Shown piece by piece: positions 14,226 through 47,497 of a stretch of DNA of 50,163 nucleotides (within the stretch, counting starts at the first letter, position 1; each line of letters begins with the position of its first letter). A program made the translations under genes and the position numbers. Under the pieces are notes generated by a model. That model had not been told where the DNA came from. It saw only the letters and a list, made by a program, of their open reading frames with translations, and did not search any database. The DNA comes from Nemertoderma westbladi (lineage: Eukaryota > Animalia > Xenacoelomorpha): the NCBI GenBank assembly GCA_032718475.1, contig JAUCBJ010007127.1:1-50163 (forward strand), written 5' to 3'.

Positions 14226-14289
14226 GCTGAATGAATGAATTGTGGAAATATACTTTTGCCACCACCATGCAATCCACAATTGGCATGCA

Positions 14290-20685: not shown

Positions 20686-22441
20686 GGGGACCATCACCCC
20701 AATTGGTGTGGCAATTTTCGAAAATTTACAAAATATTCAGAAAGAAAAACATTTTTTATTTGTTTGTAGTTTGTTATACTGTAATAAGATATATAAATAT
20801 CACTTCACTAAAAATATTATAACTGCACTCTAAATAAAAGGGTAAATTAAACAAAGACATAAAAATGTTTTTTTTTATATTAAAACAGTCTTTGATCAGT
20901 TAAATAAAAAAAGCGCGCTGGTGGAAGAAAAACAGGATTAATTTACTGTGCGGCTGGTCATAGGGGTGGGGTCGAGTTTGTAGTTCGATAGAAGGATTTT
21001 CATCGATTTAATCCATCGAGTGATTTTTTCATCACACAGCATTTTTCTAAATTTGAAATTTTTTAAATTTTTTTTTACCTTTTTAATATAAAAAAATATT
21101 GAAATTTTTCAAAAATTTTCGCTATTTTCATCGATAAAATATGAAAAATTGAAAAATTACCCCAGGTAATGGCGGATCCATAAATGCACAAAATATTTGT
21201 GTAAACAAGAACAACAGCATTTATGGCTGGTTTTCATGAGTCTTTGTATAAAACAACCTTTTTCTCAGTTTGTCGATTTTTAAATTTTTCATCACTAAAG
21301 TCCCTACTACTTTTTAATATTTGTTCAATTATTGTCATCAAACGTATCTATCGGGGCCTACCAAAATGTTCAGCAGCTTTAGGGCTACAATCGTGAGTTT
21401 TGCTACCAAAATGTCCAGCAGCTTTAGGGGCTACAATCGTGAGTATTGCTACCAAAATGTTCAGCAGCTTTAGGGCTACAATCGTGAGGATTGCTACCAA
21501 AATGTTCAGCAGCTTTAGGGGCTACAATCGTGAGTATTGGATTTGTAAAACTGGCCCCTTCGATATTCTAGAACCGATTTTGTAACTGCTACATTTTTTT
21601 GTCTTTCTCAAAATATTTGATCCCCTAACCCCCATATATTTTCCAAAAACAATAATTTTGTGCTAAAATTTTCATAGAAGATGGCCTACATATCGGCACT
21701 TATACGACATGGGTACCTACATTTTCACATTTTTTTTAAACCTCTGTATTTTATGTAAAACGGTATGCATTGTACATTTATTAATCACATATGTTACATC
21801 TGCATCATTATGCTTTATTATGATCTTGATTTACAGAGGCGTACAAGACGTGTAAAGCCATGCTTTGTAATTAGATTCAAAGTGGGAGTGGCACTACACT
21901 CTTCATTACAACACTCAATGTTACTGTTAACATTGTCAGATGGTAATATACTTTTTTTCACTTTAATAACAGTGCAGAAATCTTTTCAATTGTCCCGTGT
22001 CAATGTATGCTTGGACGTCATTAGATATGTATCGTTTGTTCTATACTGTATCCGTGTAAAACATTATTAAATACCTGTAAAACACAATAAATGTTCTAGA
22101 ACAATTGTAACTGATATAGTAACAATCCGAATAAGGCAGAAAAATTTCAAATTGTAGGTACCCAATACCCATGTCGTATAAGTTCCTTCATATCTAGGTC
22201 AATTTTTCCAAAGTCTTGGACCGAGAACTGCAACCCAGTTTGTACCACTTATCCTTCTACATGATCAATTTTACATATAAATGCCTCAAAATGGTACAAT
22301 TTTTGAATAGACCGACCTGCGTAAAACATACCATATTTTACGAACAAAGGGGTTTACAAAGCTATCCATCGCAGATCATTGTGTTAAAGTTTCAGCACAG
22401 TAGCTTTATAAATAAAAAATAGATTTGGAGTGATGGTCCCC
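20686..22441. mobile_element. Non-autonomous DNA transposon, Kolobok-like
   Basis: ~17-bp TIRs GGGGACCATCACYCCAA (20686-20702 and 22425-22441); left flank TTAA, right flank TAAA. TTAA target plus purine-purine termini fit Kolobok. Broken Cys-rich minus-strand frame near 21820-21960. Confidence 0.55.
21358..21539. repeat. 45/46-bp tandem repeat x4 inside the Kolobok-like element
   Basis: CTACCAAAATGTTCAGCAGCTTTAGGG(G)CTACAATCGTGAGTATTG repeated four times. Confidence 0.9.
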
Positions 22442-22494: not shown

Positions 22495-23679
22495 TTAAAA
22501 TCGAATTTTCATTTCAACATGTGTGATAGGAGATGAGTTATGGGTATACCAAAATATACCCCTAGGGTACTCCAAGTCATAAATTCCATTTAGACTGCAG
22601 ACAGAACACACGTTATACCACCATGCTGCGCTCTGAGAAACTGCACAGTTCCCGCCATTGTTGCCATCATTATCTCTATCTTTAGTCGTAAACTCTTGGC
22701 CATTGAGGTTCGCGTGCTGAGATCCTTGGTATTCGTATACCATGCTGTCCCCAGCCGTTCCGCTGTAACCAGAGATGTCTAACTTATAATTATCAACAGC
22801 TGATCCAACTCTAAAGGAGGAATATTCCGCGTATTTGTGGTCATCATCCCACCACATGTCAACTCGCAGAATGACCCCAGCCTCAGTGAGTCTGTGAATG
22901 CTCTCTAAACCCAACCAGAAGTTAGCTGTAACATCTCCAAAGCCCCTCAAGTAACTGTCCCATTCGAGGAAGAAGTTCTCATCGCCGTTAACCCGCCGTT
23001 GTATTACGAGCCACGGACCATCCGGAACTGTTGCGTCGCACCGAATTAAACCGTTTACTCCATAAGAGTTGTTGTAGATCTTTATCGAATTATTCTGCTG
23101 AAAATGAGGGCAAATCTCCGCGTGATTGATATCCAATACTAGATGGAGTATTTCACTAATCTGCTGTTTCACTTCAGGAAAAAATGTATCATGTTCCTTG
23201 AGCTTACTGCTTAACATATTCCCTTGGTATTCTATCTTGCTAAGTATCTCGTTTTTATAACTCATTGACAAGCAGATGATAGCAATCATGGAGGCCAATA
23301 CCATAATGAATCCAATATTGATTAGGATTATAACTGTTCGCCATTGTGACTTATTCTTGGAATCTTTGTGCTTGTCGAAGGCAGAGCGAGCAATCTCGTT
23401 TGGTGTTTGTGGTTTTATATCGTATATGACGCTGCGATTTAGGCTGGAGTGGTGCGAGTTATTATCCAAATGACTTTTATTCATTTCTTCCCGTCGAATG
23501 CGTTCCATGGAGTTGAAGTTTTCCTTCCCTACGTATTCGTAGTCAGTTATCCCTGTGTTCGTTTCATAGGTGTTACTGGGGTATCGAGTGTTTGATTCGT
23601 AGGTGTTACAGGGGTTTGCAATGCCAAATCTAGTTGTAACATGCCCCATCTCTAATCGTCGGCAGTGTTCATCGGACAT
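22495..23679 (-). CDS. Type II transmembrane fibrinogen-domain (FReD, FIBCD1-like architecture) protein, 394 aa
   Basis: N-terminal hydrophilic tail, TM helix VIILINIGFIMVLASMIAIICL, helical neck, complete FBG domain (WLVIQRR, FWLGLE, GTAGDS, FTTKDRDND, WWY, CSLNG, EMKIR). Acceptor TTTCAG 5 nt before the ATG. Confidence 0.9.
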   Translation of the reverse strand: MSDEHCRRLEMGHVTTRFGIANPCNTYESNTRYPSNTYETNTGITDYEYVGKENFNSMERIRREEMNKSHLDNNSHHSSLNRSVIYDIKPQTPNEIARSAFDKHKDSKNKSQWRTVIILINIGFIMVLASMIAIICLSMSYKNEILSKIEYQGNMLSSKLKEHDTFFPEVKQQISEILHLVLDINHAEICPHFQQNNSIKIYNNSYGVNGLIRCDATVPDGPWLVIQRRVNGDENFFLEWDSYLRGFGDVTANFWLGLESIHRLTEAGVILRVDMWWDDDHKYAEYSSFRVGSAVDNYKLDISGYSGTAGDSMVYEYQGSQHANLNGQEFTTKDRDNDGNNGGNCAVSQSAAWWYNVCSVCSLNGIYDLEYPRGIFWYTHNSSPITHVEMKIRF

Positions 23680-24199
23680 GATATCTGAAAGAAAAATTAG
23701 TTGTATTTATATAATTCTGTCATTCATAAATCCATACCAAAATACATACATTTATTATCCATGAGTCATGCAAATTCTAAATGTTAAATAAATAAAAATA
23801 TAAATACCAAATTAATCTGGATTATAAAGACTGGTGTCTTTCACACCATCACTTCCCTCTCACCAGTCGAGTACCTCAGAACAAGATCATGCACAGGTTA
23901 ACCAGTTGAAGGGTAGCAATATTTAACCAAACTCTGCTCATCCGCCGTGTCTACTGCGTGGTTCTGTTTAGTAGAATGTTGCTGTTTGGGCTTTTATGAG
24001 AACTGGGTTAGTACCAGTATCCAATGAAGGCGACATCCTCTTGTTAAACCACTGCTGCGTCGCTATTGCTGTGTGTATGAGCCTGTTTACTGTTTAGTGC
24101 TTTTCACTGCCTGTTTTCAGCAGACATGGTGGTCAGGCAATAAGTATCTACAATTTTTGCAACTTTTATCAGAATGAGTGGGACTCATTCTGAATTGAA

Positions 24200-24560: not shown

Positions 24561-25012
24561 ATTGATATAAACATAAAGTAGCTTTAATTATAGTTTATCC
24601 AACCATCAGATTAATCTGAAATGTAGTAAGAGTGTCCTATGAGCATTGCTATTTCTTAAACTTAAATAGAATAAGTAGTCAAGCTAACGAAGTAGTTGAG
24701 CAAACAGAAACAAGTACTCGGAAACACAGCTTACCCGGGTTAACCATGTCGGGTTAGCCGAGTCTCGTGCTGCGCGAAGGCCTCAGGAATGTGTATTTTT
24801 AGCTTATTGCTTTATTTTTAATAATTTTTTTCATTTATTCATATTTAATATATTTATATATTTATGTGCAGTTAATTAGTTAGCCTACTCTTTTTGTATT
24901 TTTAGTTGATTGTCAATGTTCAGTTCCGATATCTACATAACTTTGTAGTCAACTATAACAACATACTGTGTCTAGAAACTGACCGACTGGATTTATACTA
25001 TACTATTCAATT

Positions 25013-25018
25013 CATTCA
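25013..25018. other. Left target-site duplication CATTCA
   Basis: Identical to 40081-40086, directly abutting the TIR. Confidence 0.93.
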
Positions 25019-25890
25019 AGTAGTAGGGTCTTGGCCGGCTCTGTGACACTTGGACCTCACTGACACCCATTGGGTGTCATATGACACCCAATTATCACCC
25101 TATGGGTGTCATTGGGTGTCATTGGCGCCAGACTGTCTGGGTGACACCTCCCAATTAGGCTAATTAGACCCTAATTGACAGGTGTCATCAATTAATTAGT
25201 TCAATTAAACCCTAACAGGTGTCATATGACTCCTAATTAGGGTTTAATTGATTATCCTAATTAATCAGACTGATTAGCGCCCTGACACACAATGGGTCAT
25301 CAGTTAGGTCCAAGTGTCACAGAGCCGGCTCAAGAGGGTGTCATAAGTGACACCGCAGCTCTTTTATTCATTAATATCTATTTATTTATATTTAATTTTA
25401 ATTAATTATTTGCATTTTATTTTATTCGTATTTAATTCTAAATTAATTATTCATTTGTACTTTATGGGTATACAGCTCCCTTACTGGTAACTAATTACTC
25501 CAGACAGCTTTATCGTTGACCTTTGACCCCCCAATTAGCTTTAACCAAGCAACAGCATATTAATGATAGTTGTATCCAAGCGCCCCTGCCCCCCACCCCG
25601 TGACAGCTCTGATTACTAATTACTCGTACATATATCCAACCGCCTGTAGTTCCATAGTCTGCCGCTAGAGGGCGTATTATCTGAAAATTAACATATTATA
25701 CATATTTAACTATTTATTTGTACCTAATTTTAATTAATTATTTGTATTCTATTTGACTTTATTTATTCATTTGTACTTTATTTTAAATTAATTAATTGTA
25801 TTACTTTTACTTTATATATTGATTTCTATTTTTAGATTAATTTGGTTTTATATTACCAATGAGATCACTATGACATAATGTCTATTTTTA
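25019..25890 (+). repeat. Left terminal inverted repeat (872 bp)
   Basis: Reverse complement of 39209-40080; same length; no mismatches in the segments I compared by eye. Confidence 0.95.
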
Positions 25891-26044
25891 GCTCTATGGT
25901 TTATAGATCCCTTATCGTTAACTTTATAATCTTTCCTCTCGCGGCCCCTTTGTCTTCGTTATTCAATGGCGCCATTCTGTCTACCATTGAATAACATTGG
26001 GCAATCATTATCTCGCCTGATGTAACGTCATCAAAGCTGCTCTC

Positions 26045-26149
26045 TGATTGGTTTAATTATACAGTCTTTTCTCCCTCCTGTTCCCTGATTGGCTAACCCA
26101 TTCTAGCCCCCTCTATAATAGCCCCCGTTCACCACATTCCCAATCATTG
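26045..26149 (+). promoter_or_regulatory. Putative Pol II promoter of the 569-aa ORF
   Basis: Two inverted CCAAT boxes (CTGATTGG at 26045 and ~26084), TATAATA at 26114, Inr-like TCATTG with its A 32 nt after the TATA start. Confidence 0.55.
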
Positions 26150-26239
26150 TCTCTTTGTTTTCCTGAAAAGTTTTAATTATTTTCGTAAAAGTATTTATTT
26201 ATTTTTATTTCCTAAACGAGTTACCGGTACACAATCACG

Positions 26240-27949
26240 ATGGCACATTCAGAAATCAGCTATTCAAGCAACGATCTGGTTTGCAACGAAAATCAGTTTA
26301 TGCTACAAGACAACTCGTTTGGTCTATATTTCGATTCGGCGAACAAACTCTTCCCGTTAACGATAAATACAACCTTAAACCAACCCATCCCGATTCCGGC
26401 AAACTACGCGCACTTTATTTTCCGCGCCTGCTACGAACTTCACGATGGACAATATCAAACCCTCGACGATAATAAACTTCATTCCTCCAACCACGGTTTC
26501 AAACTTTTAAAAAGGGACAACAAAATCACGTTCAATCTAACTACTTCGCCCGAGACGTTTACGATTCCAACTAGTATAGTCGATTTTATTCGAGAAAACA
26601 TCAACCAAGATGTGGCAAATCGTCTACTGGGTTTAACCACTCTCGTAACCTCCTTCTTCTCCGATGATCGCTTATTTGATTTTCATAGTATCGCAAACTC
26701 GATTCTTCTTCTCATCTGGAACTCGTCGACTCCGACCGAGGAAGAGGAGACTCGTTTCTTTAAACTTTTCGACAAGGATGTTCTCGCTTTCGGCGAGAAA
26801 TTGAATGAGCTCACATGCTTTTTCGCCAATAAAGTCTCCTATTACTTTGGATTCAATTATAGAGTTGGCACCTATGGAAGTATTAACCCAGTGAAACCAC
26901 TCGAGTTAATAAAGCTGGAAGACACGGTAAACAGTTCATGGATCACATTTTCCGTCGCCTGCGCCAATTTATTTCAACAATATGTAAACATCTGTCGCCC
27001 TTTTATTAATCCTACTACTCACCTTGTCCTAAAACCGGGTAATTGGGTTGCTTTTGACTATTGCACTTTTGGGTTTGTTACAAATATTCGGAACGAGCGC
27101 AATTTAGCGATCACCAATGGCTACGAGGTTGACGATGGAAAGGCTATTGTTTCTTCTAGGGGCATGATTCTTCTTACACCAAGCGAGGTCGGCGAATTGA
27201 AATGGTTCGATTCAACCGTCGAGGATAGTGAATGTGTCTGCTACGATGAACTTAACGTATACAAAGACAACATTTCCGAGCGAATATCGTTACAAAGTTG
27301 TATCAGTGATTCAGAAATTGATTTACAGATAACCGAGAGAAAATTTAACGAATCCTTTACTATAGCTAACACGATTCAAGCGCGCGAGGCTCTAATCAGA
27401 TTCAAGGCTATGGCTATACAATTTGCTTTCAAACCAAAGCAGATTACGATCCCCAATCATCAGCGCTATCTCATAAATAGCAATATCGCAGCCTTTATCT
27501 ATAAGTTCAAATCCGAAAAATATGTTGGTATCTGGCCCATTTTAATGAAAGACGAAGAGAATACCACTTTTCAGTTCACCAACGGTCTCAATATTAGGGG
27601 CAGCGATTTTCTCGCGATAAATATAACCAACCCACCCAACTCTCACTACTATCTCAGTCCTTACATTCATATCGAGAACAAACCAGCAGAAATTATATTC
27701 ACCAATACGAAAAATACCAACACTATCACCCTATCCAACGACTTTACCATCGCGCGCCTTTTCGAATTACTAAAACGTTCTCTCAGAGAAGGCATCTTTC
27801 TCCCGCAGCAAACACACCTTAATCTATTTCACCCCCCAAGAAAAGGCTATCTCAACAATCTATTAAAGAGAAAATTATCGCAACCATTAATAGTATCGGA
27901 CCCTAAAAGGGTTAAACCAGTTATTCTCGGAGGCCAGCAACCCTATTAA
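26240..27949 (+). CDS. 569-aa element protein with putative tandem PC4-like (ssDNA-binding) repeats and C-terminal NLS
   Basis: Long intact ORF with promoter and ATTAAA downstream. aa 409-460 and aa 261-322 align by eye with the PC4 core. KRK...PKRVK is NLS-like. The ORF is secure; the fold is inferred. Confidence 0.6.
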   Translation: MAHSEISYSSNDLVCNENQFMLQDNSFGLYFDSANKLFPLTINTTLNQPIPIPANYAHFIFRACYELHDGQYQTLDDNKLHSSNHGFKLLKRDNKITFNLTTSPETFTIPTSIVDFIRENINQDVANRLLGLTTLVTSFFSDDRLFDFHSIANSILLLIWNSSTPTEEEETRFFKLFDKDVLAFGEKLNELTCFFANKVSYYFGFNYRVGTYGSINPVKPLELIKLEDTVNSSWITFSVACANLFQQYVNICRPFINPTTHLVLKPGNWVAFDYCTFGFVTNIRNERNLAITNGYEVDDGKAIVSSRGMILLTPSEVGELKWFDSTVEDSECVCYDELNVYKDNISERISLQSCISDSEIDLQITERKFNESFTIANTIQAREALIRFKAMAIQFAFKPKQITIPNHQRYLINSNIAAFIYKFKSEKYVGIWPILMKDEENTTFQFTNGLNIRGSDFLAINITNPPNSHYYLSPYIHIENKPAEIIFTNTKNTNTITLSNDFTIARLFELLKRSLREGIFLPQQTHLNLFHPPRKGYLNNLLKRKLSQPLIVSDPKRVKPVILGGQQPY

Positions 27950-28199
27950 TATAAACAGTCTCTATTTATTAAAAACTGTTCTGATTATATCTTTTGTTAT
28001 TGTTGATGTTCTTATATTATTTATTATTAATGTTGTTGGTAAATTATTTATCCGTTGTTGTTATATTATTTAATATTGATGTTGTCGGTAAATTATTTAT
28101 TCTTGTTTCCCCATATTGTTTAAAAATATAAGATGTTTAACCGGTTATTTTTCATTTTTCTCTACTAGTTAATCTATTCTATGAGAGCGAGCCATGAAG

Positions 28200-29900
28200 T
28201 AAGTGAGTCTCAGCATACCATTAATGACCCCTACTGCTTCTTCGTAATCAATTTGAATGTTAACCCCTAAATAAACAGCCAATCCCTATGAATTCTTTAC
28301 AAACTCGATATGCAAGTTGTTTATCAGAGCTGATTTAATTAAAATATATTATTTAGCGATTTTCGTGATTAATGCTATAAATTATATTCACCAAAATGAA
28401 AATATCCACCCTATTACTCTATCCATCAAGCGATGCTTTGTATGTATTGATGGCGAGCAAAGTTTTCAGGGCGACCACCTCTAGGCTGTAAGTACGCTGT
28501 TCTGTCCTATCATAGACACTCTGTCTTTTAGATGCTTCACTGTTAATATTAAGCCGTTAGCCATGGCGCCGCTGATAAGCCGCGAGGATATTCAAAGGCT
28601 TTGGTTTGATTGTTCGTACTATGGATAGTTCAATGAAATCATGAAAGGGAGGGCCGCATGGGGTTGAAAGTGATAGCCCCTCATCCTTATTTTCCCGAGA
28701 AATTCTTAAAGGCGACTATGAATAGAACAATGAAACATTAAAGGGAGGACCGCATATGATGGGAAATGATAGGCTTTCAACTGCCTTTGCCCAGATTTGT
28801 GTAAGTTCGAGGGAGGATGTAGAGGAAAATATACTCGTAGCTTTAATGCCCCATTTGATTAAAGTAGAGCAAATTTAGCTTTCACCTAAGGGTTATCACT
28901 CCTTGCAACTGCAAAATTTAAAATTCTATCTATGATGTATTCACTATAACTCGTTTGCTGATATTATTTCATCGCGAAATTAAAAGCATCTGCTATCACT
29001 ATTATTATAGTATATTATCTAAACTAGTGACACCGAGTTGGAACAGATAGGATAATTGCACTTTGTTATGTTTTAGGTTAGTAGCTTTAATCATAATACT
29101 ACCGGGCTATAAAATGTTGTATAAATATCGGGGGGAGGGTCATAATGACCCCGATCGAGGTGGGGAATCGAAACTATGACAATCTGTATATCCTATTTTG
29201 TGTTTACTTTTTATATTTTCCACGAAGCGAGAGCAAAAATTTAAATTTCCTGAAAATTTCTGAGTCTCAGCACACCATTAATGATCCCTATGCCTTCTTC
29301 GTAGTCAATTTGAATGATAATCCCTAAATCCCTATATTTTTCATAAAAACCCTCAAAACTTTACAAATTTTGAAAAATCGGCTAATATAAAATGCCCCAT
29401 AGTTTCAATAAAAATGGTACTCGAAATGTGAATACAATGCTTCCACTTCATCAAGGTGAAACCTTAACGAAAACTATCCTGATCCACACTCGATTTGTAA
29501 ATACATTGCATCCACTTTTACCCAGATGGAGCATTTGTATTGTATTTAAGATTTATTTTCATGACTCACATAATAACCCCAATACTACCGGCCTATAAAA
29601 TGTTGTACAAACACCGGGGAGGGTCATAATGACCCTGGTCGGGGGTAGGGAATCGAATCTATGACAATCTGTATATCCTATTTTGTGTTTACTTTTTATT
29701 TTTTCCGTGAAGCGACGGCCAAAATTTAAAATTCCTGAAAATTTCGCGGATAGAGAATTATAAATATAATTGGTGAGCATAGTGCTACGCGAAGGCTCCA
29801 TGGCAGATGTATTTTAGCTATGGACTCGTATATCCATTTTACTCTACTATAGCCAGACTGTCTTTGAGGTGCCCCGTTAGCCTTGGCGCCGCTAAATCTG
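28200..29900. repeat. Internal non-coding region of the element built from imperfect duplications
   Basis: 28204-28270 resembles 29261-29328; 29093-29250 resembles 29581-29745; 28513-28580 resembles 29854-29895. Confidence 0.75.
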
Positions 29901-29994
29901 CATGAGGGCCGGCCGGTAAGCGAGATATCTCTATTGCTAATAAGCTTGAGGGCCCAAATAAGGCTAACATTCATATGCTATATCCCATAGTTAT

Positions 29995-30080
29995 TACCGA
30001 TATATAATTACTACTGGCTCCTAACGACTTATCACTGTACCGATATATAATTACTACTGGCTCCTAACGACTTATCACTG
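29995..30080. repeat. Perfect 43-bp tandem duplication upstream of the acidic-ORF promoter
   Basis: TACCGATATATAATTACTACTGGCTCCTAACGACTTATCACTG x2 (29995-30037, 30038-30080). Confidence 0.95.
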
Positions 30081-30143
30081 GGAGCCCTTTAATTAAAGCC
30101 GCCGCTCGTTGAAACTGTTGCGTTGCTCCCTCTGCGTTGATGC

Positions 30144-30181
30144 TATATAAACCGAGTTGGGACCTTCATTCGTCATCAGTT
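30144..30181 (+). promoter_or_regulatory. TATA box plus initiator for the acidic ORF
   Basis: TATATAAA at 30144-30151 and TCAGTT at 30176-30181; AATAAA at 30718 after the stop. Confidence 0.65.
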
Positions 30182-30266
30182 TTGACATCGAATAATTCAC
30201 AAGTTATTGTAAACTTTTTTCATTTTTAAACTTTTGCGTTTACAATTTATCGAGTTACTATTTATC

Positions 30267-30686
30267 ATGGCTTCCACCACCAGCACCCAGCTAGCCGCCT
30301 CCGTGACACCGGTCTCCACCACAGCTACACCCGTCACCACCATATCCAACGCTACCATCACCATCACATCCAGAAGCGTCGGTACACAGACCACGGAGAG
30401 CAGGTCGGAAGCGGTAACTCCCTATGGCCGTTTTATGAGGGACCAGGAAGAGGAAATGGCGTGGGAGGAAGATTTGTTTGATCGGGAGCTCGAGATTCGA
30501 GCACTGGAGGAGGAGAGGTTGGAGCGACTTCGGACCTCCTCCAACTGGTACGATCAATATTTGTATCAGGAATTTCTCGAGGAAGAGATAGCGGCGGCTG
30601 AGGAGAGCAGGTATAAACATCCCTTTCCCCAGGAAAACTGGGAGGAAACAGAAGATTTCAGGGAGGAACCATGGTGTAAGTTTTAA
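30267..30686 (+). CDS. 139-aa S/T-rich then acidic/aromatic protein with an LC8-type TQT motif
   Basis: ATCATGG start context at 30267, GC-richer than flanks, own TATA/Inr and polyA signal; RSVGTQT; E/D-rich C-terminal half studded with W/F/Y. Confidence 0.7.
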   Translation: MASTTSTQLAASVTPVSTTATPVTTISNATITITSRSVGTQTTESRSEAVTPYGRFMRDQEEEMAWEEDLFDRELEIRALEEERLERLRTSSNWYDQYLYQEFLEEEIAAAEESRYKHPFPQENWEETEDFREEPWCKF

Positions 30687-31164
30687 TTAATACTAACATT
30701 CCTTTATAATATGATATAATAAAATAGGTTAAAGCAATAAGCAGATTGAGTAGAAATTAATTTGAGTAATTACAATAATTATAAAGTTATACGAATTACC
30801 AAGATGATTATAAAGCAATTACATAAATAATAAATTATTATTTACTTATAAAATAAATTATTTCTTTTCTCATAGGCTAAATTATATTCTATCGCTGAGG
30901 GCTCAGAGTTAGTTTTCGCTGGAGCGAGCGAGATGGGAGGATTGGGAGCGCAGTAGAGGGGTGACAGTTGGACCTCACTGTGAAAACGAATAAATTAGTG
31001 TTACTAATGGGGGGCTGATGAGTTATAATTCTATGGAGTGGAGAAAAAAGAGTCATAAAGAACTTTATTTGTTTAATTATACTTTAGCTATCCATACTTA
31101 TTTTATTGTTTCTACGGTATAGGCCACCAGAAAACCCAGATTTGTACAATTGTGAACAATTTTA

Positions 31165-31302
31165 TCAAATGTGTACCAGTGTAATGTAATGTTGTTGAAC
31201 GGGACAATTGAACATAATTTTCCGCCAAAGGAAAAAATTAATAGTTTTGAAACGTTTAGTAATCTGGAAACTCTCTATAGTTTGCAGCGAACTGTTACTC
31301 AT
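31165..31302 (-). CDS. Possible 45-aa micro-ORF
   Basis: TTTTCAG|CTATA-ATG acceptor context; MSNSSLQTIESFQITKRFKTINFFLWRKIMFNCPVQQHYITLVHI; minus-strand AATAAA near 31100 and 31065. Confidence 0.25.
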   Translation of the reverse strand: MSNSSLQTIESFQITKRFKTINFFLWRKIMFNCPVQQHYITLVHI

Positions 31303-32446
31303 TATAGCTGAAAATGTGATAAGGATTTTGTTTACCTTTATTAAAGTGTGCGGTTAATAGTGTCTAGTAGGCCCATAGTTAGTGATGTTAAGGCATCTTC
31401 TGGTGTTTCTCTGTGCCCTCTCGGTGTCAGACTAATGGCGCGACATCTCCCTACACTAAATTAATTATTCAATGGTCTAGCCTCCTCCATTCACATATCC
31501 CATCCACTCCTATACACTCCATGAACCTCCATGTGGTCTTGTATGTAGTTCTCTCTCTACCATTATAGCCCATGTCCGCAATGTTACGCCCGAGGGGGCT
31601 CTCTCGTCTACCTGATATCAGACATACAGGCCCACCGCACACAAAGCCTTTGTCGATCCCAGCAAGTTAGCCTCCTGCTGTGTGATCTTTTATATCCAAA
31701 TAATGTCTGATGGTTGCGCATAAAAATTTTGCTTACTATTACACAATTATATTAGTATTAGGACTATTTATCCATAATAATTATATTAGAATTATAAATG
31801 TATTTACCCCACAATATTTATTACTATTAGATGTATTTATTCAAGAAATTATATGTTTTTATAATATACTTTGGAAAATTAGTCGACTAAGTCATAATTT
31901 TTAAAACTTTAAATACGGGTTGAGTTATTTTATAAAGTTAAGAAGAATGAACCAATAGAGGGAGCCTGAAGTCTAATCTCTTGGCCTTTACTCCCATTAA
32001 CTCCCAAGGTTGCATACTATCACTATAGCTGGGAGAGTCGAAGCTAGAGTATATGCTAGAGTTAACCAAGAGCTAGGAAAAAGAATAATGCTCTTCTAGG
32101 GTCCAAACTCACGACCTTCTAATTAGAAAACTAAGCAAATAATCAGCTTGAAGGCCTTAGACCCTTAATCGGAGGCATCGAGCAGCCAATGAGAGAGCAG
32201 ATGCGAGTACAGTGGTAAAGCCCATCCATAGTGAGATAGCGTTGCACTAGCTCTCAAGGATAGTTATACTCACCATTCAAATATCCCTCGCAAACCAGAG
32301 TCCCCCAACATCTAAAGTATTACACTTCAATGCAAAATATATAATGCAATATAACTCGAATATTTCTGTTTTTTATAATATAAATAATGATTGTAGCATA
32401 AATTTATAATTTCACATAAATATAATGTGAAAATTCACTTTAATAT

Positions 32447-32950
32447 AGAGTAACTAACTAAACATGTAATAGGATATACAGATGGTCATAGGTTCGACCC
32501 ATTCTCGTATCCCGTTTTATGGAAAATATAAAAAGTAAACATAGAATAACTAGAGTAACTAAACTAAACATAAAATAGGATGAACAGGTGGTCACATGTT
32601 CGATCCCTACTCGCGACCATTATAAATCCAACACAAAATAAGTTAAACCAGGGTTCGAATCCTAATCATGAAAATATAAAAAGTAAACATAGAATAACTA
32701 GAGTAACTAAACTAAACATAAAATAGGAAAAACAGAAGGTCACGGGCTCAATCCCTACTCGTATCCCGTTTTATGGAAAATAAACAGGAGGTCATAGGTT
32801 CAATCCCTACTCGCGACCATTATAAATCCAACACAAAATAAGATAAACCAGGGTTCGAATCCTACTAATGCAATTATAAAAAGTGGGTAACACGGATGGT
32901 CACGGATTCAAACCCTACTCACGGAAAAATAAAAACCAACACAAAATAAA
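32447..32950 (+). repeat. Complex tandem array carrying seven Pol III B-box/tRNA T-arm-like motifs
   Basis: GGTTCGACCC 32491, GTTCGATCC 32598, GGTTCGAATCC 32652, GGCTCAATCC 32745, GGTTCAATCC 32797, GGTTCGAATCC 32852, GGATTCAAACC 32904, separated by A-rich repeated spacers. Confidence 0.8.
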
Positions 32951-32987
32951 TAATATAGTAAACTTTCATGTATATCATAGTAAATAG

Positions 32988-33503
32988 CTAATTTAATAAT
33001 AAAGTTTGTAAAATAGATAATGATTCGGGGAATTCACCGGCTGGACACATGGAAACGATTTTATTACTATGAAATACACTGAAATATGCACGTCCTATAT
33101 ATATTCTAATCGCGCAAAATAATTCGGGGGTATAGCTAATAAATATTGCTTTATTATTAAATGTATGATGTCCACATTTTTTCATTAATAATTTAAAATT
33201 AACACTTGGAAAAATAATAGTTCGTGTTTCGGTATTAAGTTTCAAATTTTGTAATTGCATACCGATAGTTTGTTTTAAATAAAGCAATTCACTAGCTAAA
33301 TTATTGCACAGGCCTACAATTGTTACTGCGCCGCTGGGAAATAGCATTATAGTTGAATCGTCACCTTTGTAGATAAACATGTTTGGTTTTAAGCATCTTT
33401 GACCTGTAATTTGCTGTGAAATTTTCTCTAGTTCAAATTTGGCAATGTTTTTTCCGGTGAACTGTTTATTGGTTATTTCTATTTTGTTGTTCAATTTCTT
33501 ATT
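32988..33503 (-). CDS. TBP-fold (TATA-binding-protein-like) protein, terminal exon without a 5' ATG
   Basis: Two TBP-type repeats: STIMLFPSGAVTIVG resembles TALIFSSGKMVCTG; SYTPELFCAIRI..FSVFHSNKIV resembles SYEPELFPGLIY..LLIFVSGKVV; IEITN...FELEKIS resembles PQLQN...LDLKTIA. The frame opens immediately after acceptor ATTTTTCTAG (33513-33504). Confidence 0.72.
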   Translation of the reverse strand, partial: NKKLNNKIEITNKQFTGKNIAKFELEKISQQITGQRCLKPNMFIYKGDDSTIMLFPSGAVTIVGLCNNLASELLYLKQTIGMQLQNLKLNTETRTIIFPSVNFKLLMKKCGHHTFNNKAIFISYTPELFCAIRIYIGRAYFSVFHSNKIVSMCPAGEFPESLSILQTLLLN

Positions 33504-33517
33504 CTAGAAAAATAAAA

Positions 33518-36500
33518 TTAAATTCTAGTAGGGGGGATTACTACTCGTTTCGCCGGTCTAACAAGCTTAGTGCTATAGTGTCCATATGGTTTGCTGCTAT
33601 ATTTACTACTCCAATATGATTTCGTATCCCAGAGCGTTAGTGCCTTCTTATAGACATGACCAGTAAAAATTTGATGCTTTCTAGAAGTGAAGGTAGAGTT
33701 ATAGCGGAAGAGCATTGCCTCGTTTTCAAAACAGTCTGCATAATCCTCGTGTGTTAGTTGCTTAGCGACAACCGATCTAGATACTCCTTTGGCGGTTTTC
33801 TTGATTGGGGCATCATAGGATTGAAAACTGTAGACCTTTGGTTTAAGGAAAACCCACTGTTTATACTGCAAACCGCAGCTCTCATCTTTTACGAAGCCGA
33901 GAGCCGCTTTGTGTTTAATGGTATAGAGTGGATGTGTTGTACTGTAGTTGGAAGTATCTAGGAAACCACCCTCAAACATTGCCCGTAGAAAGGTTAGCTG
34001 TGGTGTATTAGTTACGCTTAGCATTAGAGAATCCGTGTCACCGGCTAGACAGCGAATCTGGCAATCCAGTTTTTGTTCTAGAGGCTTCAGTTTGTTGTAA
34101 AATAGGTCGTACATCTGTAGCTTAGATAGATCTAGTATAGTGCAACCGATGAACACGCCCTGATTTAGGCAAACAGCCTCTTTAGTGAAAGTATGACCAC
34201 TCAAGTTGGGGGTAAATACAACAAACGATTCGTGATTGGGCTTGGCTAAGAGCAAATCGCATTGTTCGTCGCTATTGCATAACCTGAAAGAAACGCGGTC
34301 TCTAACCTTTTGGAGGCATTTCCCATACAAGGCATTGTTCATCAACTTATAAAATAGGACCTCGAATGGGTTATTTGCCGACTGTCTTTTATTTGTATTA
34401 AAACTAATGTAGTCCTTGAAAATATATTTTTGTGAGAAAGAGTAGACCCTATGTACTTGTGTAAGTTTAAGACCGAGCTTCAAATAGAGTTGAAGTAGCT
34501 TAATATGGATACCGTATTCAACCTTATTAAACTGATGTAGTAGTAGCTTAGTACAGGTATCGTTGTATGGTCTACAGGTGGCCCTATCGGTGAGATTGTA
34601 ATGCTCCCAAAGATCTTCCATGTATTCGCTAAGAAAGGATTTAGGGACTGACATCTTCTCCGCTCCTAGAGGCAGATCGGCGGTCAAATCATGAATTTCT
34701 TTCGGATAATGTAGATCAACTATGCAATAATAACCAGTATCCCCACTCGCGTCTACTGTAGCTAGGTCTATGGGGGTAGTTACGAGTTTAATATTAGCGT
34801 AGGGAAGTTTCTGGCTCAGGGCGCAGCCGTAAAGGTTATTCGCATCGATGGGAATTAGATATTTCTCGGGGAGACTGGAGTCATAGTCGGGTTTATCGGG
34901 GATATTTGCGTCTACGGAATGTGTATTCAAGAATACTAGACCACCCCTAATATTTGTTTCAAAGTCCGAGTAGATGGAAGCGTCTGATAGTAATTGAATT
35001 TCTGATTGCGTGAATTTCAGCGCCGCGTCGTAAGTTAATCCAGGGGCAGTGAAGTACATTACGGGCTCGAGTCCATAATTAGTAAGACAGAGGGATCGGA
35101 ACTGCTCGAAAGTATCAGCCAATAGGGTAACATCTAGAACCAAATAGCCAATCATATAGTCGAAGATTGTTAGACAGTTTAATTCATCCCAAGTAGTAAG
35201 CGCGCGCTGATAGTTTTCTGCGCTACATTGTTCCAATTTGAGATCATTATAGAAGCTTTCTAATGGGGGGAGTGTAGTTTCGTGTAGGTTTGAAATATTT
35301 TGAATATAGGAATATGGGAATACACCCTTGTTTTTTATTGTGTTATCGCTAATGTTGGGATAGAGTTGGGTCATTTGAGCTAGTGTATGGGGTATGGCTG
35401 TTGCTAGGTTACTGTTATTTTTAGTGAGATAACTACTAAGATTATCTAGGCTGGCAGTCATAAACTGATAGGAATCTAGAAAATTAATGGAGATACTTTC
35501 TTTAGCGTTGGCTGTTGGTGTACTCGGATCGATTGGAAAGCTAACTTTAAGGTGAATATAAGTTTCGGTGTTTTTTGGTATTACACTCATTTTCCAGTGT
35601 GTTCTAGAACTATCGGTCATTCCTTCTTTTAGTAGTAAATGCATATCGAATTTCCTCAAGTTATGAAATATAATATAAAAATTATTCCGTTTTAGGGAAA
35701 GTTTCCTGTTGCAGCTGACGCAAGCAGCCCCTCGATACTCCCCGCTATAATGATCATGATCGCGGACTTTGGTGCTGAGATTGTCATTGAGGTTTAAATT
35801 ATGCGAATCGGGGGTTAAATTACAGTTGCAGACGTAGCATTGTGTAGCGTTATTAAAGTCAGTTTGCTGGCTAGTAGTGAGTTGCATGGGGGCGTGTGTG
35901 TTTGTACTAGAAATGGACCAATCGTATAACTCCCTACAATGACTTTCCATAGCGGTTAGAAAGTCGCGCATTATGTGGTTACTGCCATCGTCACGGAAAA
36001 TTTGAACATCTGTTTTAGGAGGGTTAATTAATTTTTGATTTGGTACTGTATAAAAGGCTGCCGCGCTAGCTATATGTTTCTGTGGGAGTTTAATATTGTT
36101 TGTAGGTTCTAGAATAGTTTCAATGTCGGCGTATATACAGAAAGGTGGGGATAGAGTCTTATCGTACCTGTCAAATTTAACCAAGAGATTTTCGGGCATA
36201 TACTCGAGCTGGCGTTTACCCGTATAGCAGCGCTCTCGATGTTCTCCCAGTGATTTGTCAGTGTAAAAGGCTCTGAGACAGCGTTCGCAGTGCGTCTTGT
36301 TGCCGGTAGAAGTAGCTTTAGTATTTATTAATCTATCTATGTTAGTAATAGCTACATAGTGGGCAGGGTTTTTGGTTGTGGCTTCGATAAATAATAAGTT
36401 TAGTACAGTTTTACCGGAACAGTGCGCGCTATCTGGTTGACTTAAAATGGAGAGTTCTTCCGTATTACTCCAATAAAGAAGGTTTATACAGTATATAGGG

Positions 36501-37573
36501 TTGGCTTTCAGAAACTGGGGAATACCAGTTACTCTGTCCACCGGGAAACTTAAATTGGAAAAATCAAACATGTTTAGAAAAGGGGTATACGTTGAAATTC
36601 TTTTGATATTATTTTGTTTTCTATCAATTTTCTTATAATTTGCGGCGGCCAATACTGCGTATTTAAAGCATTCCCCCAGCGGGCAGTCTACGCTTACGGT
36701 ACATTTTTTATTTAATAATAATTTAGAATTATTGAAGCCTTGACCCTTTAAATAGGGGTTGCGTTGGGACCGCGCAATCTCAATAGTTATTCGCTCGATG
36801 GCTATTATGCGCCAACCCGAGCCGAGGCAGAGAAACACGCTTAACAGTTGATCGATACGATTGACGGCGCTAGAAAACCAGTTATTAAAGTCGCTATTAT
36901 TTAGAATTTGATTATTGTTACCGCTAGATTTAAAACAGAATGATTCAATTTGAAATCCCTCGCTCGTTTCACGCTCCATTACGATGTTGATTGTAAGCCA
37001 GACTCTTAAAAAAGTTCCCATGGCACTACGTAAATGGCTACTAACGTGTTCTTGAATGTGTGGAAAATTTTCATTTAATGTTAATTCTGCGTCGAGTCTT
37101 GTTTCTGCGAGGTCGTTGTTATAGGTAAACAGTCGTCCGTGTGCGCTTCCGTTGGAGGGGGGTTGAAATGGATTGTTTGGGGAAATAGAATCTCGTGAAG
37201 TTGAAGGTTCATTATTGGAGCCGCCGCCGCCGACTTGTTCTGGAGTAGAGTTGATGGGGGATGAGTGGGAGGTAGTCGGAGTTTTGCGTTTCCGCGAAAA
37301 AAGTCGAGTGTAGCATTCATGCTCAGAAAAGGATGACAGGGTGAGCGAATCCCCGCAGCGGCAATCGGCTGGCTCGTTTACGTAACTAAATCCTGTTCCC
37401 CCCTGAGGACACGAAGCAAGATGGCCAATCAGCGTCTTCTTTTCCGAAGACCAAGTCGGACAGCAGTCGCATCGATATTGCGCGAAATGAGTTTTAATAT
37501 GGCGAGATAAATTATCACTCCGCGTCTCTTTGTCGCAGATGGGGCAGCTGACTTTATTGGTTGATCTTGGCAT
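33518..37573 (-). CDS. Protein-primed family B DNA polymerase (Polinton pPolB with endonuclease VII/HNH-like insert), 1351 aa
   Basis: Exo motifs IYADIE, FHNLRKFD, YLVLDV; KGVFPY; Pol motifs DANNLYG, KLMNNALYGK, GDTDS, PKVY, AKG. N-terminal C2H2 finger, terminal-protein GSGW motif, vOTU-like CFKYAV..HY, and CxxC..VRDHDHYSGEYRGAACxxCN. Confidence 0.96.
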   Translation of the reverse strand: MPRSTNKVSCPICDKETRSDNLSRHIKTHFAQYRCDCCPTWSSEKKTLIGHLASCPQGGTGFSYVNEPADCRCGDSLTLSSFSEHECYTRLFSRKRKTPTTSHSSPINSTPEQVGGGGSNNEPSTSRDSISPNNPFQPPSNGSAHGRLFTYNNDLAETRLDAELTLNENFPHIQEHVSSHLRSAMGTFLRVWLTINIVMERETSEGFQIESFCFKSSGNNNQILNNSDFNNWFSSAVNRIDQLLSVFLCLGSGWRIIAIERITIEIARSQRNPYLKGQGFNNSKLLLNKKCTVSVDCPLGECFKYAVLAAANYKKIDRKQNNIKRISTYTPFLNMFDFSNLSFPVDRVTGIPQFLKANPIYCINLLYWSNTEELSILSQPDSAHCSGKTVLNLLFIEATTKNPAHYVAITNIDRLINTKATSTGNKTHCERCLRAFYTDKSLGEHRERCYTGKRQLEYMPENLLVKFDRYDKTLSPPFCIYADIETILEPTNNIKLPQKHIASAAAFYTVPNQKLINPPKTDVQIFRDDGSNHIMRDFLTAMESHCRELYDWSISSTNTHAPMQLTTSQQTDFNNATQCYVCNCNLTPDSHNLNLNDNLSTKVRDHDHYSGEYRGAACVSCNRKLSLKRNNFYIIFHNLRKFDMHLLLKEGMTDSSRTHWKMSVIPKNTETYIHLKVSFPIDPSTPTANAKESISINFLDSYQFMTASLDNLSSYLTKNNSNLATAIPHTLAQMTQLYPNISDNTIKNKGVFPYSYIQNISNLHETTLPPLESFYNDLKLEQCSAENYQRALTTWDELNCLTIFDYMIGYLVLDVTLLADTFEQFRSLCLTNYGLEPVMYFTAPGLTYDAALKFTQSEIQLLSDASIYSDFETNIRGGLVFLNTHSVDANIPDKPDYDSSLPEKYLIPIDANNLYGCALSQKLPYANIKLVTTPIDLATVDASGDTGYYCIVDLHYPKEIHDLTADLPLGAEKMSVPKSFLSEYMEDLWEHYNLTDRATCRPYNDTCTKLLLHQFNKVEYGIHIKLLQLYLKLGLKLTQVHRVYSFSQKYIFKDYISFNTNKRQSANNPFEVLFYKLMNNALYGKCLQKVRDRVSFRLCNSDEQCDLLLAKPNHESFVVFTPNLSGHTFTKEAVCLNQGVFIGCTILDLSKLQMYDLFYNKLKPLEQKLDCQIRCLAGDTDSLMLSVTNTPQLTFLRAMFEGGFLDTSNYSTTHPLYTIKHKAALGFVKDESCGLQYKQWVFLKPKVYSFQSYDAPIKKTAKGVSRSVVAKQLTHEDYADCFENEAMLFRYNSTFTSRKHQIFTGHVYKKALTLWDTKSYWSSKYSSKPYGHYSTKLVRPAKRVVIPPTRI

Positions 37574-38283
37574 CTTGAATCTAGAAAAATATGTTGATTA
37601 TTTATAAAAATAAAAAATACTGTATACGTGCTAAAAATAAAGTAAAACAGTAGGTATTAATTGGTTACTAGGCAACAATACTGTGTTTGTATAGTTAGGC
37701 CTATTGCTGTATTGTAGCAATCAGCCAGTGAAACATAAAGCAGACCGTCGGTAGTGTCTAGTGTGGAAGTGTTAGTGTACCAGCGGTCAGATAGTGGCGA
37801 TAACCAAGACACAATAGCGATGGCAGTTATTATTCGTGGAAAGAGGGTCTATAAACAGCAGTCAGTCAGTGCAGTAGTGCTAGTGATATAGTCTGCTACA
37901 AGTCAGACGTACCGGTAGCGTTAACCAATAGAAATCAACGATAGGCTTAGCTAATCGCTGTGTGAGATCTCAGTTAGTCAGTAGGATATATAGTGAAAAC
38001 TGCAGTATTCATTGTTGTTCAATAGGGTCTATATCGCTACTATGATGGCATTAGGCTAACTCGAATGATGGGTTATCGGTAGTTGGGTAGACAGGCAGAT
38101 AGACAGATGTAGGCCTATTGATCGAATGCTTCGATCACGGTTTAGGCTATCGGTACCACCGCAGTCTGACAGTAATTAATAATGAGCCTACTGCAATACT
38201 GTTGTACCGGTAGACATTAAATGTAAATTGTTTGCTAGCGGCATCGATAGTACCGTCAGATGGTGGAAGGGAAGGCAGATTTT

Positions 38284-38720
38284 ACTTACGGTGTTAGTAA
38301 ATATTCACGGAAAGAAGAAGTTTGGACGTTCGTGAGGAAGTTGGTTGACGTGGACGATGAGAGAATTTATTAACCGATAGAGCGGAATGATATCGGAAAT
38401 TAGAAATAATGGAATATTACGCGGCGGATATGCGGAAAGTTTGTTGTCGACGATGAGCAATAGCACGGCGAAATGACAATAATACAACTCTACAAGTGGG
38501 TTGTTGACTGATGATAACAAATAAATATTCTTAATAAATAATATTAAATTCGAAAACAAAATAATGGTAAATGATGTTAATTGTAAATTGCAATTGAATT
38601 AATGACCTAATATATTGATGGGGACTTATTAAATAGCAATTCGGTTAGTAAGGGAGGCCCTTGTCTCTTAAATGAGCCAATCAGAACGCAGCAGCAGAAA
38701 TGAAGCCCGCTGATTGGCTG
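38284..38720 (-). promoter_or_regulatory. Putative promoter and non-coding leader exon of the minus-strand (pPolB) transcription unit
   Basis: CCAAT boxes at ~38677 and ~38713; minus-strand TATTTAA starting at 38635; Inr-like TCATT with A at 38603 (32 nt); ATG-free stretch down to donor GTAAGT at 38289-38284; acceptor ATTTTTCTAG at 37590-37581. Confidence 0.5.
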
Positions 38721-39208
38721 TTCATGCATAAGCGGTAACCAGGGCAACTTCTCGCGTTGATGAATCTATTAGAAAACTCTTGTAAGCATCTTGACTAATT
38801 ATATTGAGTTGGCTGTATAACAGAAGCAGGTCTGGTGCAAAGGAAAGGGATTAGTAGAGAGGAATGCGTGATTAGAGGCGCTTCATTGTTATGATACGGG
38901 TTGCCTGGATATAGGAAAGGGACAAAGCGACGTCGGCTATAGTGGGAACAATGGAGGGCCGCTTGAGCATTAGCCTTGGGCGATATACGGATTTGCTGTA
39001 GTCAAGGCCGCGATGGGATTATTAGTGAGTCATCGGGGGGGAGGCTAACAGACGGGACCGCTCATTTATATTTGCCTTGGGGTATACGTGTAGATTCACT
39101 GCCTGTCGTATCTAGTTAATGAATAATGATGGCAGAGGAGGGGCCCCCGCCGATGAACGTAGTTGATAGTTGCCAGTAGGGAGCCGTATACCATAGCCAT
39201 TATAAAGT

Positions 39209-40080
39209 TAAAAATAGACATTATGTCATAGTGATCTCATTGGTAATATAAAACCAAATTAATCTAAAAATAGAAATCAATATATAAAGTAAAAGTAATA
39301 CAATTAATTAATTTAAAATAAAGTACAAATGAATAAATAAAGTCAAATAGAATACAAATAATTAATTAAAATTAGGTACAAATAAATAGTTAAATATGTA
39401 TAATATGTTAATTTTCAGATAATACGCCCTCTAGCGGCAGACTATGGAACTACAGGCGGTTGGATATATGTACGAGTAATTAGTAATCAGAGCTGTCACG
39501 GGGTGGGGGGCAGGGGCGCTTGGATACAACTATCATTAATATGCTGTTGCTTGGTTAAAGCTAATTGGGGGGTCAAAGGTCAACGATAAAGCTGTCTGGA
39601 GTAATTAGTTACCAGTAAGGGAGCTGTATACCCATAAAGTACAAATGAATAATTAATTTAGAATTAAATACGAATAAAATAAAATGCAAATAATTAATTA
39701 AAATTAAATATAAATAAATAGATATTAATGAATAAAAGAGCTGCGGTGTCACTTATGACACCCTCTTGAGCCGGCTCTGTGACACTTGGACCTAACTGAT
39801 GACCCATTGTGTGTCAGGGCGCTAATCAGTCTGATTAATTAGGATAATCAATTAAACCCTAATTAGGAGTCATATGACACCTGTTAGGGTTTAATTGAAC
39901 TAATTAATTGATGACACCTGTCAATTAGGGTCTAATTAGCCTAATTGGGAGGTGTCACCCAGACAGTCTGGCGCCAATGACACCCAATGACACCCATAGG
40001 GTGATAATTGGGTGTCATATGACACCCAATGGGTGTCAGTGAGGTCCAAGTGTCACAGAGCCGGCCAAGACCCTACTACT
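39209..40080 (-). repeat. Right terminal inverted repeat (872 bp)
   Basis: Reverse complement of 25019-25890; ends CCCTACTACT. Confidence 0.95.
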
Positions 40081-40086
40081 CATTCA
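40081..40086. other. Right target-site duplication CATTCA
   Basis: Identical to 25013-25018. Confidence 0.93.
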
Positions 40087-41836
40087 TATCTCTATTATTA
40101 TTCCATTACTCGATTCAAATTAATTAAAGCCTTTTAATCGCTGTACATTCATTATTCCCCCCTGTACGATTTCATCCTCTAAGAATACTTAATCATAAAA
40201 TCTTAGATATTCGGTTATCGGTTATATACAAATTAAATTAATCAGAATATCCAATTAGATAAAACTACCCCTAGAAGGCCTAAACAAAAATCTACATAAA
40301 TGTAGTCAAGATGAATAATTAATTAGTATAATCATAGTTTTTATGATTTCTGGAATGGGGCAAAGTGCAGCTTAATATTGTATCTACTACTGTAGGAGAA
40401 TTACTTCTACTATAAGGATGCTTGTATATCGGTAGGCGGTGTCGTATATACGAAGCTAAACCAGTCAGTAGTAGTAGATCTCCCCCCTGGGCAAACCTGG
40501 CAGTTGTCTTGGAGTTGAACTAAAGTTCCAGAACCTTATGACTTGCTTTACGTCCCGAATAGGCCTCCTGTGCTTCGCTACCTCAACCTTAATATTTCAA
40601 TTCAAGATTTGTAATCCTCCAGAATACCTACTGTAGTGTAACATTCTGACAGACAGCCATGACATGAATTCTATTGTAATCAGCAGAAGAAGCTCTGTAT
40701 CTCAGTATGATACTTTTTTAACAAAGAAACTTCATTGCAAATTGAAATACCTAATTATGTAAATAATATAAATTCATGTTTATTTACTTACCTAGCTTTA
40801 TTTACTTTGTTTTTATTTATGTAGATTAGCAATAATGGAAACCAAACACAGACACTATTGTATTTTATTTAAAAAAAAAACAATTAAACACGATATGTTA
40901 CGTTGCAATGAACACAATTGAATTGAGCTCTACATATTAGATTTTAACTTATCTGCCTAAATTGCTATAGTTGAGTTCGATAGACTTTGTAATTTAAAGA
41001 AAAATCACATGATTTTATCAGTGAAGATAAATGTTTGAGAATTCGGTAGAAGGGGGTGTCACCCCATGTAACTGTAAATATTGATATTCCAAAACCTTTA
41101 ATATTTATATTGTAAGGCGACATGTGGCTTTATTTATTCAGATAAATAGAACAAAGTCGATACACAACGACCTGCTATTTAAACTTTATGTCATTGATCA
41201 CGTACGTGGGGACTTCGCGCAGCACCTAAGTCCAGATGAGCCTATGCGTAGAGGTACAATTTGTGGACGTAGTCGTTCGCCTCCTAGCGGCAGACCGAGG
41301 AACTGTAAATGTCTGTCTGTGAGCAGAATTTCAGCAATGCTCGTAGGTCACTCCTACCAAATTTCAGATGAATATGTTGGATGGTTCTATAATTACAGCT
41401 ACCTTTTCGTTTATGTCAATTCGCCCCCTAGCGGCAGACAGATTTACTACAGAAGTCTGTCTCTCGGTACAATTTCTAAACTTTTGATAGACTACAGATG
41501 TACCAAGTTTGGTTCCATTTCATCAAATATTGACCGACTTATTAGCGTTCAAACTTTTCCGACAACGACGGACGGGTCCACTAATTATACACTTACACTA
41601 AGGCTCACGTGGAATTACGTGGCTCGCCCCACATATAAAAACATAATTATTGGTATTAGTCCAGCAGATTTTGCATTTTACCTTGCATGGAAGTATATAA
41701 TAAATGTTTTTATTCCAAAATTGTAACATTACTCAACGCCGATTGTATTAACAGCGAGTTGTTATTTTGCACTTTACAACTTTAGAGGACATTACAGTAT
41801 TGTATTGGCCTGTACATTTCATATTGCATTTGGTGT

Positions 41837-47350: not shown

Positions 47351-47497
47351 ATAGGTCATGATTAGAAATGGAGATCAAATTAACTAAATAAATGAATACG
47401 AGTCCATGTTCTCTATAACGAATACAAGTAAACGTTTTCTGATACATAAACGTCTAAAACTGTTGCGGGTCCTTACGCCCTCTCGCCTCTGATCCTA

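Follow-up and report, generated by a model that had tools for sequence, protein, structure and literature searches.

Polintons (also called Mavericks or adintoviruses), among which non-autonomous forms are known from Repbase, are the closest described relatives of a 15-kb integrated element that occupies positions 25019-40080 of the window analysed here, i.e., all 50,163 nucleotides of the contig JAUCBJ010007127.1 from Nemertoderma westbladi (assembly GCA_032718475.1). In the passages of the literature cited here, Polintons are defined as integrase-encoding (PMC5499653), nine Polintons are described without MCP, PRO and ATPase (PMC4028283), polB-less Polinton insertions that are mobile are reported in Pieris (bioRxiv 10.1101/2025.02.07.637071), and a protein-primed family B polymerase (pPolB) with terminal inverted repeats (TIRs) and without INT is reported at 10 loci of C. 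elegans (bioRxiv 10.1101/2024.01.15.575659). The passages also include the TP-vOTU-pPolB layout and plasmids derived from Polintons (PMC11161782), as well as TBP-like as a gene label in MELD viruses (PMC8502044; bioRxiv 697771). A large survey kept only integrase-linked polymerases (bioRxiv 10.1101/2023.08.22.554363), so that integrase-less families such as this one would be missed by design. The passages of PMC6431247, PMC13215967 and 10.64898/2026.10.13.758929 contain nothing closer to the element, and no description of a Polinton family with pPolB and TBP but without integrase and capsid was found in the literature covered, most subscription papers and the supplements being outside its scope; for the nine capsid-less Polintons of PMC4028283, the underlying gene table may bear on this novelty.

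We give about an even chance to the explanation that the element represents a reduced, self-replicating subfamily of Polintons, belonging to a clade that carries a TBP-like gene, which has lost the integrase and virion genes, has kept the replicase and is integrated in trans. The stretch is present in four DNA runs (X1 to X4) that belong to one organism and were produced in three studies, and the assembled contigs of these runs were analysed; X4 has low depth, and no conclusion was based on its lack of cover over parts of the middle and of pPolB. In X2, a contig of 1422 nt with a depth of 149 (159 and 173 in neighbouring single-copy contigs) joins 24753-25018 to 40080-41242 with 0 differences and contains a single CATTCA, and in X1 a single-copy contig (depth 22) covers 40080-41004 and does not extend into the TIR. 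The site is empty in these two samples, and because the X2 contig joins the flanks over one CATTCA, the 6-bp CATTCA repeat is a true target-site duplication (TSD). The empty CATTCA site that the original prediction proposed to look for was thus found, in agreement with its claim of a recent, precise insertion by an element without its own integrase. Within ORF569 and pPolB, individual X1 contigs reach depths of 1006-1975 compared to ~22 in the flanks (45-88 times), and the summed-bin pPolB depth is ~130-160 times in X1-X3, a summed contig depth not being a copy number; we read these values as a family of dozens to over a hundred copies, with roughly 50-150 copies of the pPolB, TBP-like and ORF569 genes. 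The depths of ORF569, the TBP-like gene and pPolB are about equal in X2 and X3. Given the empty site in other samples and the many-copy depth of its genes, the element belongs to a multicopy family, inserted recently and is not a lone, one-off copy. Its features, from left to right, are as follows.

25013-25018, plus strand: left copy of the 6-bp target-site duplication CATTCA (one CATTCA in the empty allele)
25019-25890, plus strand: left TIR, 872 bp, starting with AGTAGT
26240-27949, plus strand: ORF569, an orphan open reading frame (ORF) of 569 aa, with host-type promoter-like sequence upstream
28350-31056, no strand: variable central region, common to only part of the family, delimited by a depth drop and joints
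30267-30686, plus strand: ORF139, 139 aa, Thr-rich and then acidic, a minority cassette at 6-13% of pPolB depth
31057-32960, no strand: non-coding central block, with a depth relative to pPolB of 2.5-3 times (X1, X2) or 7 times (X3)
32988-33503, minus strand: TBP-like gene, ATG ORF of 130 aa (32988-33380), 171 aa from stop to stop
33518-37573, minus strand: pPolB, 1351 aa, intact (PF03175, E 5.8e-18)
38289-38740, minus strand: promoter with CCAAT boxes and a TATA-like sequence, together with a leader exon that is non-coding, both predicted from sequence inspection
39209-40080, minus strand: right TIR, same sequence as the left one
40081-40086, plus strand: right copy of the target-site duplication CATTCA

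The termini were re-measured and are exactly as first described: the TIRs are identical across 872 bp (99.8% across 879 bp), the outer end of both is AGTAGT, and the element thereby combines the long TIRs with simple-repeat termini and the 6-bp TSD of Polintons/Mavericks. A nested fold-back of ~310 nt lies at the inner side of each end (25029-25335 and its right-TIR mirror) and consists of units of the GGGTGTCA type; in the left TIR, the arms are 25029-25079 and 25283-25335, and the single-stranded DNA fold is -112.7 kcal/mol, a raw value with no shuffled baseline. The four main ORFs (listed with an ATG start and at least 80 aa) account for 49% of the interior and the other half is non-coding, whereas the complete relatives are gene-dense. 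Three extra short ORFs, two of them of 80 and 82 aa and one antisense to ORF139, have no Pfam match. Separately, the left TIR contains a CTCF-like motif at 25662; the 54-bp segment with this motif (25640-25694 and 39405-39459, with 41434 as a further position) recurs, with loose ends on both sides, in other sequences of the DNA runs.

The absence of integrase, capsid, ATPase and adenain genes, on which the original prediction was based, withstood several searches. Among 135 short frames (at least 30 aa, outside pPolB and ORF569), none has a Pfam match to an integrase, capsid, ATPase or protease at E 0.1. A tblastn search with 882 ORFs from 86 related loci matched only pPolB and the TBP-like frame, the matching queries being polymerases and six TBP-like proteins. 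Comparison of 12 profiles built from the relatives (integrase, ATPase, capsid, penton-like, PLA2 and others) with the six frames read through stops gave a best domain E of 0.63, while the TBP profile of the relatives, which served as the positive control, detected the TBP-like frame with E 1e-14. Specifically, no rve integrase was identified by Pfam in the four ORFs and the 135 frames, and the best E for a 26-sequence integrase profile is 0.68; no packaging ATPase was identified by the Pfam frames, the 882-ORF search or the profiles; neither a major capsid protein with a double jelly-roll nor a penton was identified, with the fold of ORF569 as a blind spot; and no adenain-like protease was identified by Pfam and the 882-ORF tblastn search, no dedicated adenain profile having been made. 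Decayed integrase or capsid remnants, which the original prediction named as evidence that would count against it, were not detected either, all six-frame profile, Pfam and tblastn searches being negative. Thus, detectable remnants of integrase and virion genes are absent from the element.

The polymerase, in contrast, is intact, as had been claimed, and is the protein-primed family B polymerase typical of Polintons/Mavericks. In addition to PF03175, Pfam identifies a C2H2 finger and an insert that resembles Endonuclease VII, and the exonuclease and polymerase motifs are kept as in ten aligned relatives. The 395 pPolB homologs include best matches with 37-39% identity. The polymerase appears to be under selection in the family: 9 of the 13 pPolB variant sites among those listed are synonymous, and among the indel positions listed, 16 of 17 are non-coding and the remaining one is in a coding frame and is 3 nt long. 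In a tree of 88 polymerases (FastTree, midpoint root), which loci entered with at least 500 aligned residues and for which 100 proteins of the 120 listed were omitted, pPolB of the element forms one clade (support 1.0) with the polymerase of Nymphon striatum (P0003, KAG1653152.1) and all 6 TBP-bearing loci. The set of related loci was fetched with an alignment of the closest matches of the element and is therefore biased to its own clade. Outside this clade, TBP is present in none of the 17 loci of 8 kb or more. Within it, all four loci longer than 13 kb carry integrase, packaging ATPase and TBP, and three of the four carry a major-capsid homolog, a label that is based on weak Pfam matches to Capsid_N (E 0.007 and 0.0006) and on homology among the loci. 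The element has both the pPolB grouping and the TBP-like gene by which we define this TBP-bearing Polinton clade. Alignment A4 of the relatives is taken here to be penton-like from its motif pattern; a PDB search confirmed neither A3 nor A4.

Some of the related loci have further genes near the polymerase. Small genes are found in the TBP clade at 7050-8940 of L002, 11223-13486 and 17647-18138 of L019, and 12317-12943 of L068; PC4-, exonuclease- or OB-fold labels assigned to them by eye were not confirmed by Pfam. By inspection, pPolB of the 15.9-kb locus L080 (849-6012) is apparently intron-split, extends far at its N terminus and includes a C2H2 array; this locus has no integrase, ATPase or capsid match and contains a dUTPase-like frame at 11297-11770.

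The TBP-like gene is strongly diverged. The 171-aa frame matches Pfam TBP with E 0.0015, compared to 5e-12 to 2e-18 for the clear TBP homologs in the complete relatives (such homologs are found in six related loci), and an ESM Atlas search (0.95) returns TBP clusters as 29 of 30 matches, with a low recognition score. Neither the PDB sequences nor a word-indexed sequence search contained a match to this protein, and its single-sequence AlphaFold model (pLDDT 34) is too low in confidence for fold use. Because the TBP homology extends upstream of the first ATG (33380) by ~32 codons and begins straight after the acceptor-like TTTTTCTAG, the gene is probably spliced. The same TTTTTCTAG also precedes the pPolB ATG, a place where relatives have an acceptor-like sequence too, and a donor-like GTAAGT is located near 38289, at the end of the leader exon; these signals point to a shared leader that would be spliced onto the pPolB and TBP-like messages. 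In the relatives, ATAAAC is found in 24 of 56 gene-upstream windows of 70 nt versus 2-6% of random windows, although it is rare in L002. In the element, late genes are absent and ATAAAC is not enriched, and no late genes behind a variant TATA box are apparent. The original prediction held that a transcription-like gene kit replaces the virion module, and this part of it did not stand. Given that the long contigs of the clade carry TBP beside integrase and virion genes, the TBP-like gene is a trait inherited from complete elements and not a stand-in for the virion module, and none of the searches pointed to a role of ORF569 or ORF139 in transcription.

The foremost competing explanation, to which we assign a clearly smaller but still appreciable probability, is that of an ordinary Polinton family in which integrase and virion genes fill the central slot of most copies, the present copy being a minority deletion or cassette-swap derivative moved by its complete siblings. 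The depth of the central region bears directly on this possibility. At 28351-28801 and 29704-30154, the depth is approximately a third to 40% of that of pPolB, such that roughly 60% or more of the copies are without the sequence that this copy has between ~28.3 and 31.0 kb. In favour of this reading, the four long clade loci have integrase and ATPase genes, with a major-capsid homolog in three; defective Polintons that are still mobile are reported in the cited passages (bioRxiv 10.1101/2025.02.07.637071; bioRxiv 10.1101/2024.01.15.575659); and complete siblings would explain the retention of TBP. However, neither a remnant nor a broken edge of any integrase or virion gene is left in the element, and the sole high-depth alternative joint that was seen, from 29914 to 31534, is shorter, not longer. 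This shorter central form accounts for 12% of pPolB depth in X2 and was not seen in X1, X3 and X4; with it, this copy is not the only form to have a middle without the module. Furthermore, the extensive, organised non-coding interior and a TBP much more diverged than those of the complete relatives fit a long separation from late genes.

A bipartite system, an option raised in the original prediction, appears improbable. Under this hypothesis, the present segment supplies pPolB and a TBP-like activator of late genes, and a partner with the same TIRs and no polymerase carries integrase and virion genes behind TBP-dependent promoters. This arrangement would account for the retained TBP: given ATAAAC upstream of the genes of the relatives, the TBP-like protein could plausibly serve late genes that the element lacks. 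Segmented pPolB viruses with similar terminal repeats do exist (Vesanto virus, in the passages of PMC8363768), and a joint of 30762 to 39984 in X1 and X2 shows that, in other contigs, ORF139-like sequence adjoins a TIR end. The inner TIR depth per end is 1.3-1.5 times that of pPolB, and the central block is in excess as well, reaching 2.5-3 times at 31057-32860 in X1 and X2; however, a 1:1 partner predicts 2 times depth, the depth of polymorphic non-coding sequence is likely inflated, and the excess could stem from short non-autonomous derivatives. No partner sequence was seen in the run contigs.

The central block and its surroundings are repetitive. In the segment 32440-32960, repeats that resemble the tRNA B-box and TAAAC repeats form an array; it was considered as a tRNA or an Rfam family and had no match, and the excess of TAAAC (10 versus 2.4 +/- 1.4) is inflated by tandem repetition. 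The B-box-like array (32416-32953) has relatives of inverted orientation in the direct repeats 29095-29260 and 29581-29745. A separate depth peak at 28802-29703 is perhaps a repeat common to other elements, and a TATA-like box is located at 30144, before ORF139.

The remaining large gene, ORF569, has a depth of 1.0 (X2), 1.1 (X3) and 0.4 (X1) relative to pPolB, i.e., near-equal in two of the three well-covered runs. Searched whole and as 10 pieces, it has no Pfam match at a useful E; it has no match in PHROGs, ESM Atlas, IMG/VR or, at near length, a set of 5.8 billion, nor among 3415 ORFs of the related loci. Against PDB sequences, nothing significant was detected, the nearest match being that of a 37-residue N-terminal stretch to adenovirus hexon (E 0.18), and the single-sequence AlphaFold model (pLDDT 30) is too low in confidence for fold use. 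The sole match among 1.84 billion representatives, P0121 (E 5e-7), was rejected given that its score adds up from seven Ig-like repeats, and a PC4-like reading made by eye was supported by no search. Our guess for its function, which no test supported, is an accessory role in replication, for example that of a single-strand DNA-binding protein. The possibility that the element is autonomous or particle-making, with ORF569 as a highly derived capsid protein or recombinase, draws on the size of this protein, its retention in the family and its unrecognised fold, and is very unlikely given that the hexon match is not significant, that profile comparison of ORF569 with the major capsid and penton-like alignments of the relatives gives probabilities of only 0.1% and 3%, that the element has no ATPase or protease partner, and that the AGTAGT ends and the 6-bp duplication are in line with the standard Polinton integrase.

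The reduced, trans-integrated subfamily can be outlined as follows. The ancestor would have been a TBP-bearing Polinton from which the integrase/virion module was lost. Host Pol II would transcribe a spliced leader that feeds pPolB and the TBP-like gene, protein-primed copying would start at the TIR ends, a related element of the same host would provide the retroviral-type integrase that acts in trans and creates the 6-bp duplication, and the central slot would swap small cargo such as ORF139. Several observations weigh against this scheme. No helper element was found in the run contigs, no search of the host assembly having been made; the splicing signals are predicted from the DNA alone; the TBP-like gene is kept without late genes in cis, which the scheme leaves unexplained; ORF569, with no known fold, leaves room for a hidden capsid or recombinase role; and the middle of this copy is a minority form, so that the content of other copies at this place could be either the missing module or diverged non-coding cargo.

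With respect to its implications, this insertion-polymorphic, multicopy, integrase-less element indicates that a replicon with its own polymerase can likely be served in trans by a Polinton integrase. It would be a natural case of Polintons turning into satellites, plasmid-like replicons or segmented viruses, and it raises the question of the role of a TBP-like protein without late genes. If the bipartite hypothesis were true, interdependent integrated segments with shared ends would amount to a bipartite endogenous double-stranded DNA (dsDNA) virus, found in an animal and with insertion still going on.

In the flanking DNA, intronless-looking genes of fibrinogen-domain proteins form a cluster at 22495-23706 (minus strand), 43704-44825 (minus strand) and 6921-7412 (plus strand), two of them with an N-terminal segment that is hydrophobic (PF00147, E 3e-46 and 2e-48), and the element sits between two of these genes. 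Together with the reverse-transcriptase fragments of the flanks, these genes are indicative of an animal host. A broken non-LTR retrotransposon is located at 45639-47355 (minus strand; RVT_1, E 5.5e-14), with scattered non-LTR fragments at 13872-14773, 43002-43537 and 49222-49598. The left flank contains tandem arrays at 9049-9567 (35 bp), 16099-16397 (7/21 bp) and 21358-21539 (45 bp).

Among known systems, the element is closest to Polintons/Mavericks (adintoviruses) of the OTU-pPolB type, the nearest of those tested being the TBP-bearing complete loci L002, L019, L022 and L068, together with P0003. It resembles Polintons in the long TIRs with AGTAGT, the 6-bp TSD, the same pPolB domain layout, the TBP-like gene and the acceptor-like sequence before the polymerase ATG. 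Unlike complete Polintons, it is without integrase, ATPase, major and minor capsid proteins, protease and PLA2, and has a half-non-coding interior, the orphan ORF569 and the strongly diverged TBP. The element works like a Polinton replicon but, without integrase and virion genes, is not a canonical member. With the capsid-less Polintons, as the passages of PMC4028283 describe them, it shares the concerted loss of the virion module, and it additionally lacks integrase. The Pieris and C. elegans cases, so far as the cited passages go, are likewise TIR-bounded, with a core enzyme missing and mobilisation in trans implied; the polB-less insertions of Pieris keep integrase and virion genes and are the mirror image of the element, and the passages on the C. 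elegans loci, unlike the present data, do not describe an intact, selected multicopy family. MELD viruses also combine a TBP-like gene with an adintovirus-like PolB in a mid-size linear dsDNA element, although in the cited passages TBP appears as a label, with neither the clade association nor the late-promoter role considered here. Finally, bidnaviruses, the Drosophila Vesanto virus, the segments of which share similar terminal repeats, and fungal cytoplasmic linear plasmids are presented in the passages of PMC8363768 and PMC11161782 as Polinton-derived pPolB replicons without a jelly-roll module; these are single-stranded DNA viruses or cytoplasmic plasmids, whereas the element described here is nuclear and integrated, with a 6-bp TSD, a predicted Pol II-type promoter and predicted splice signals.

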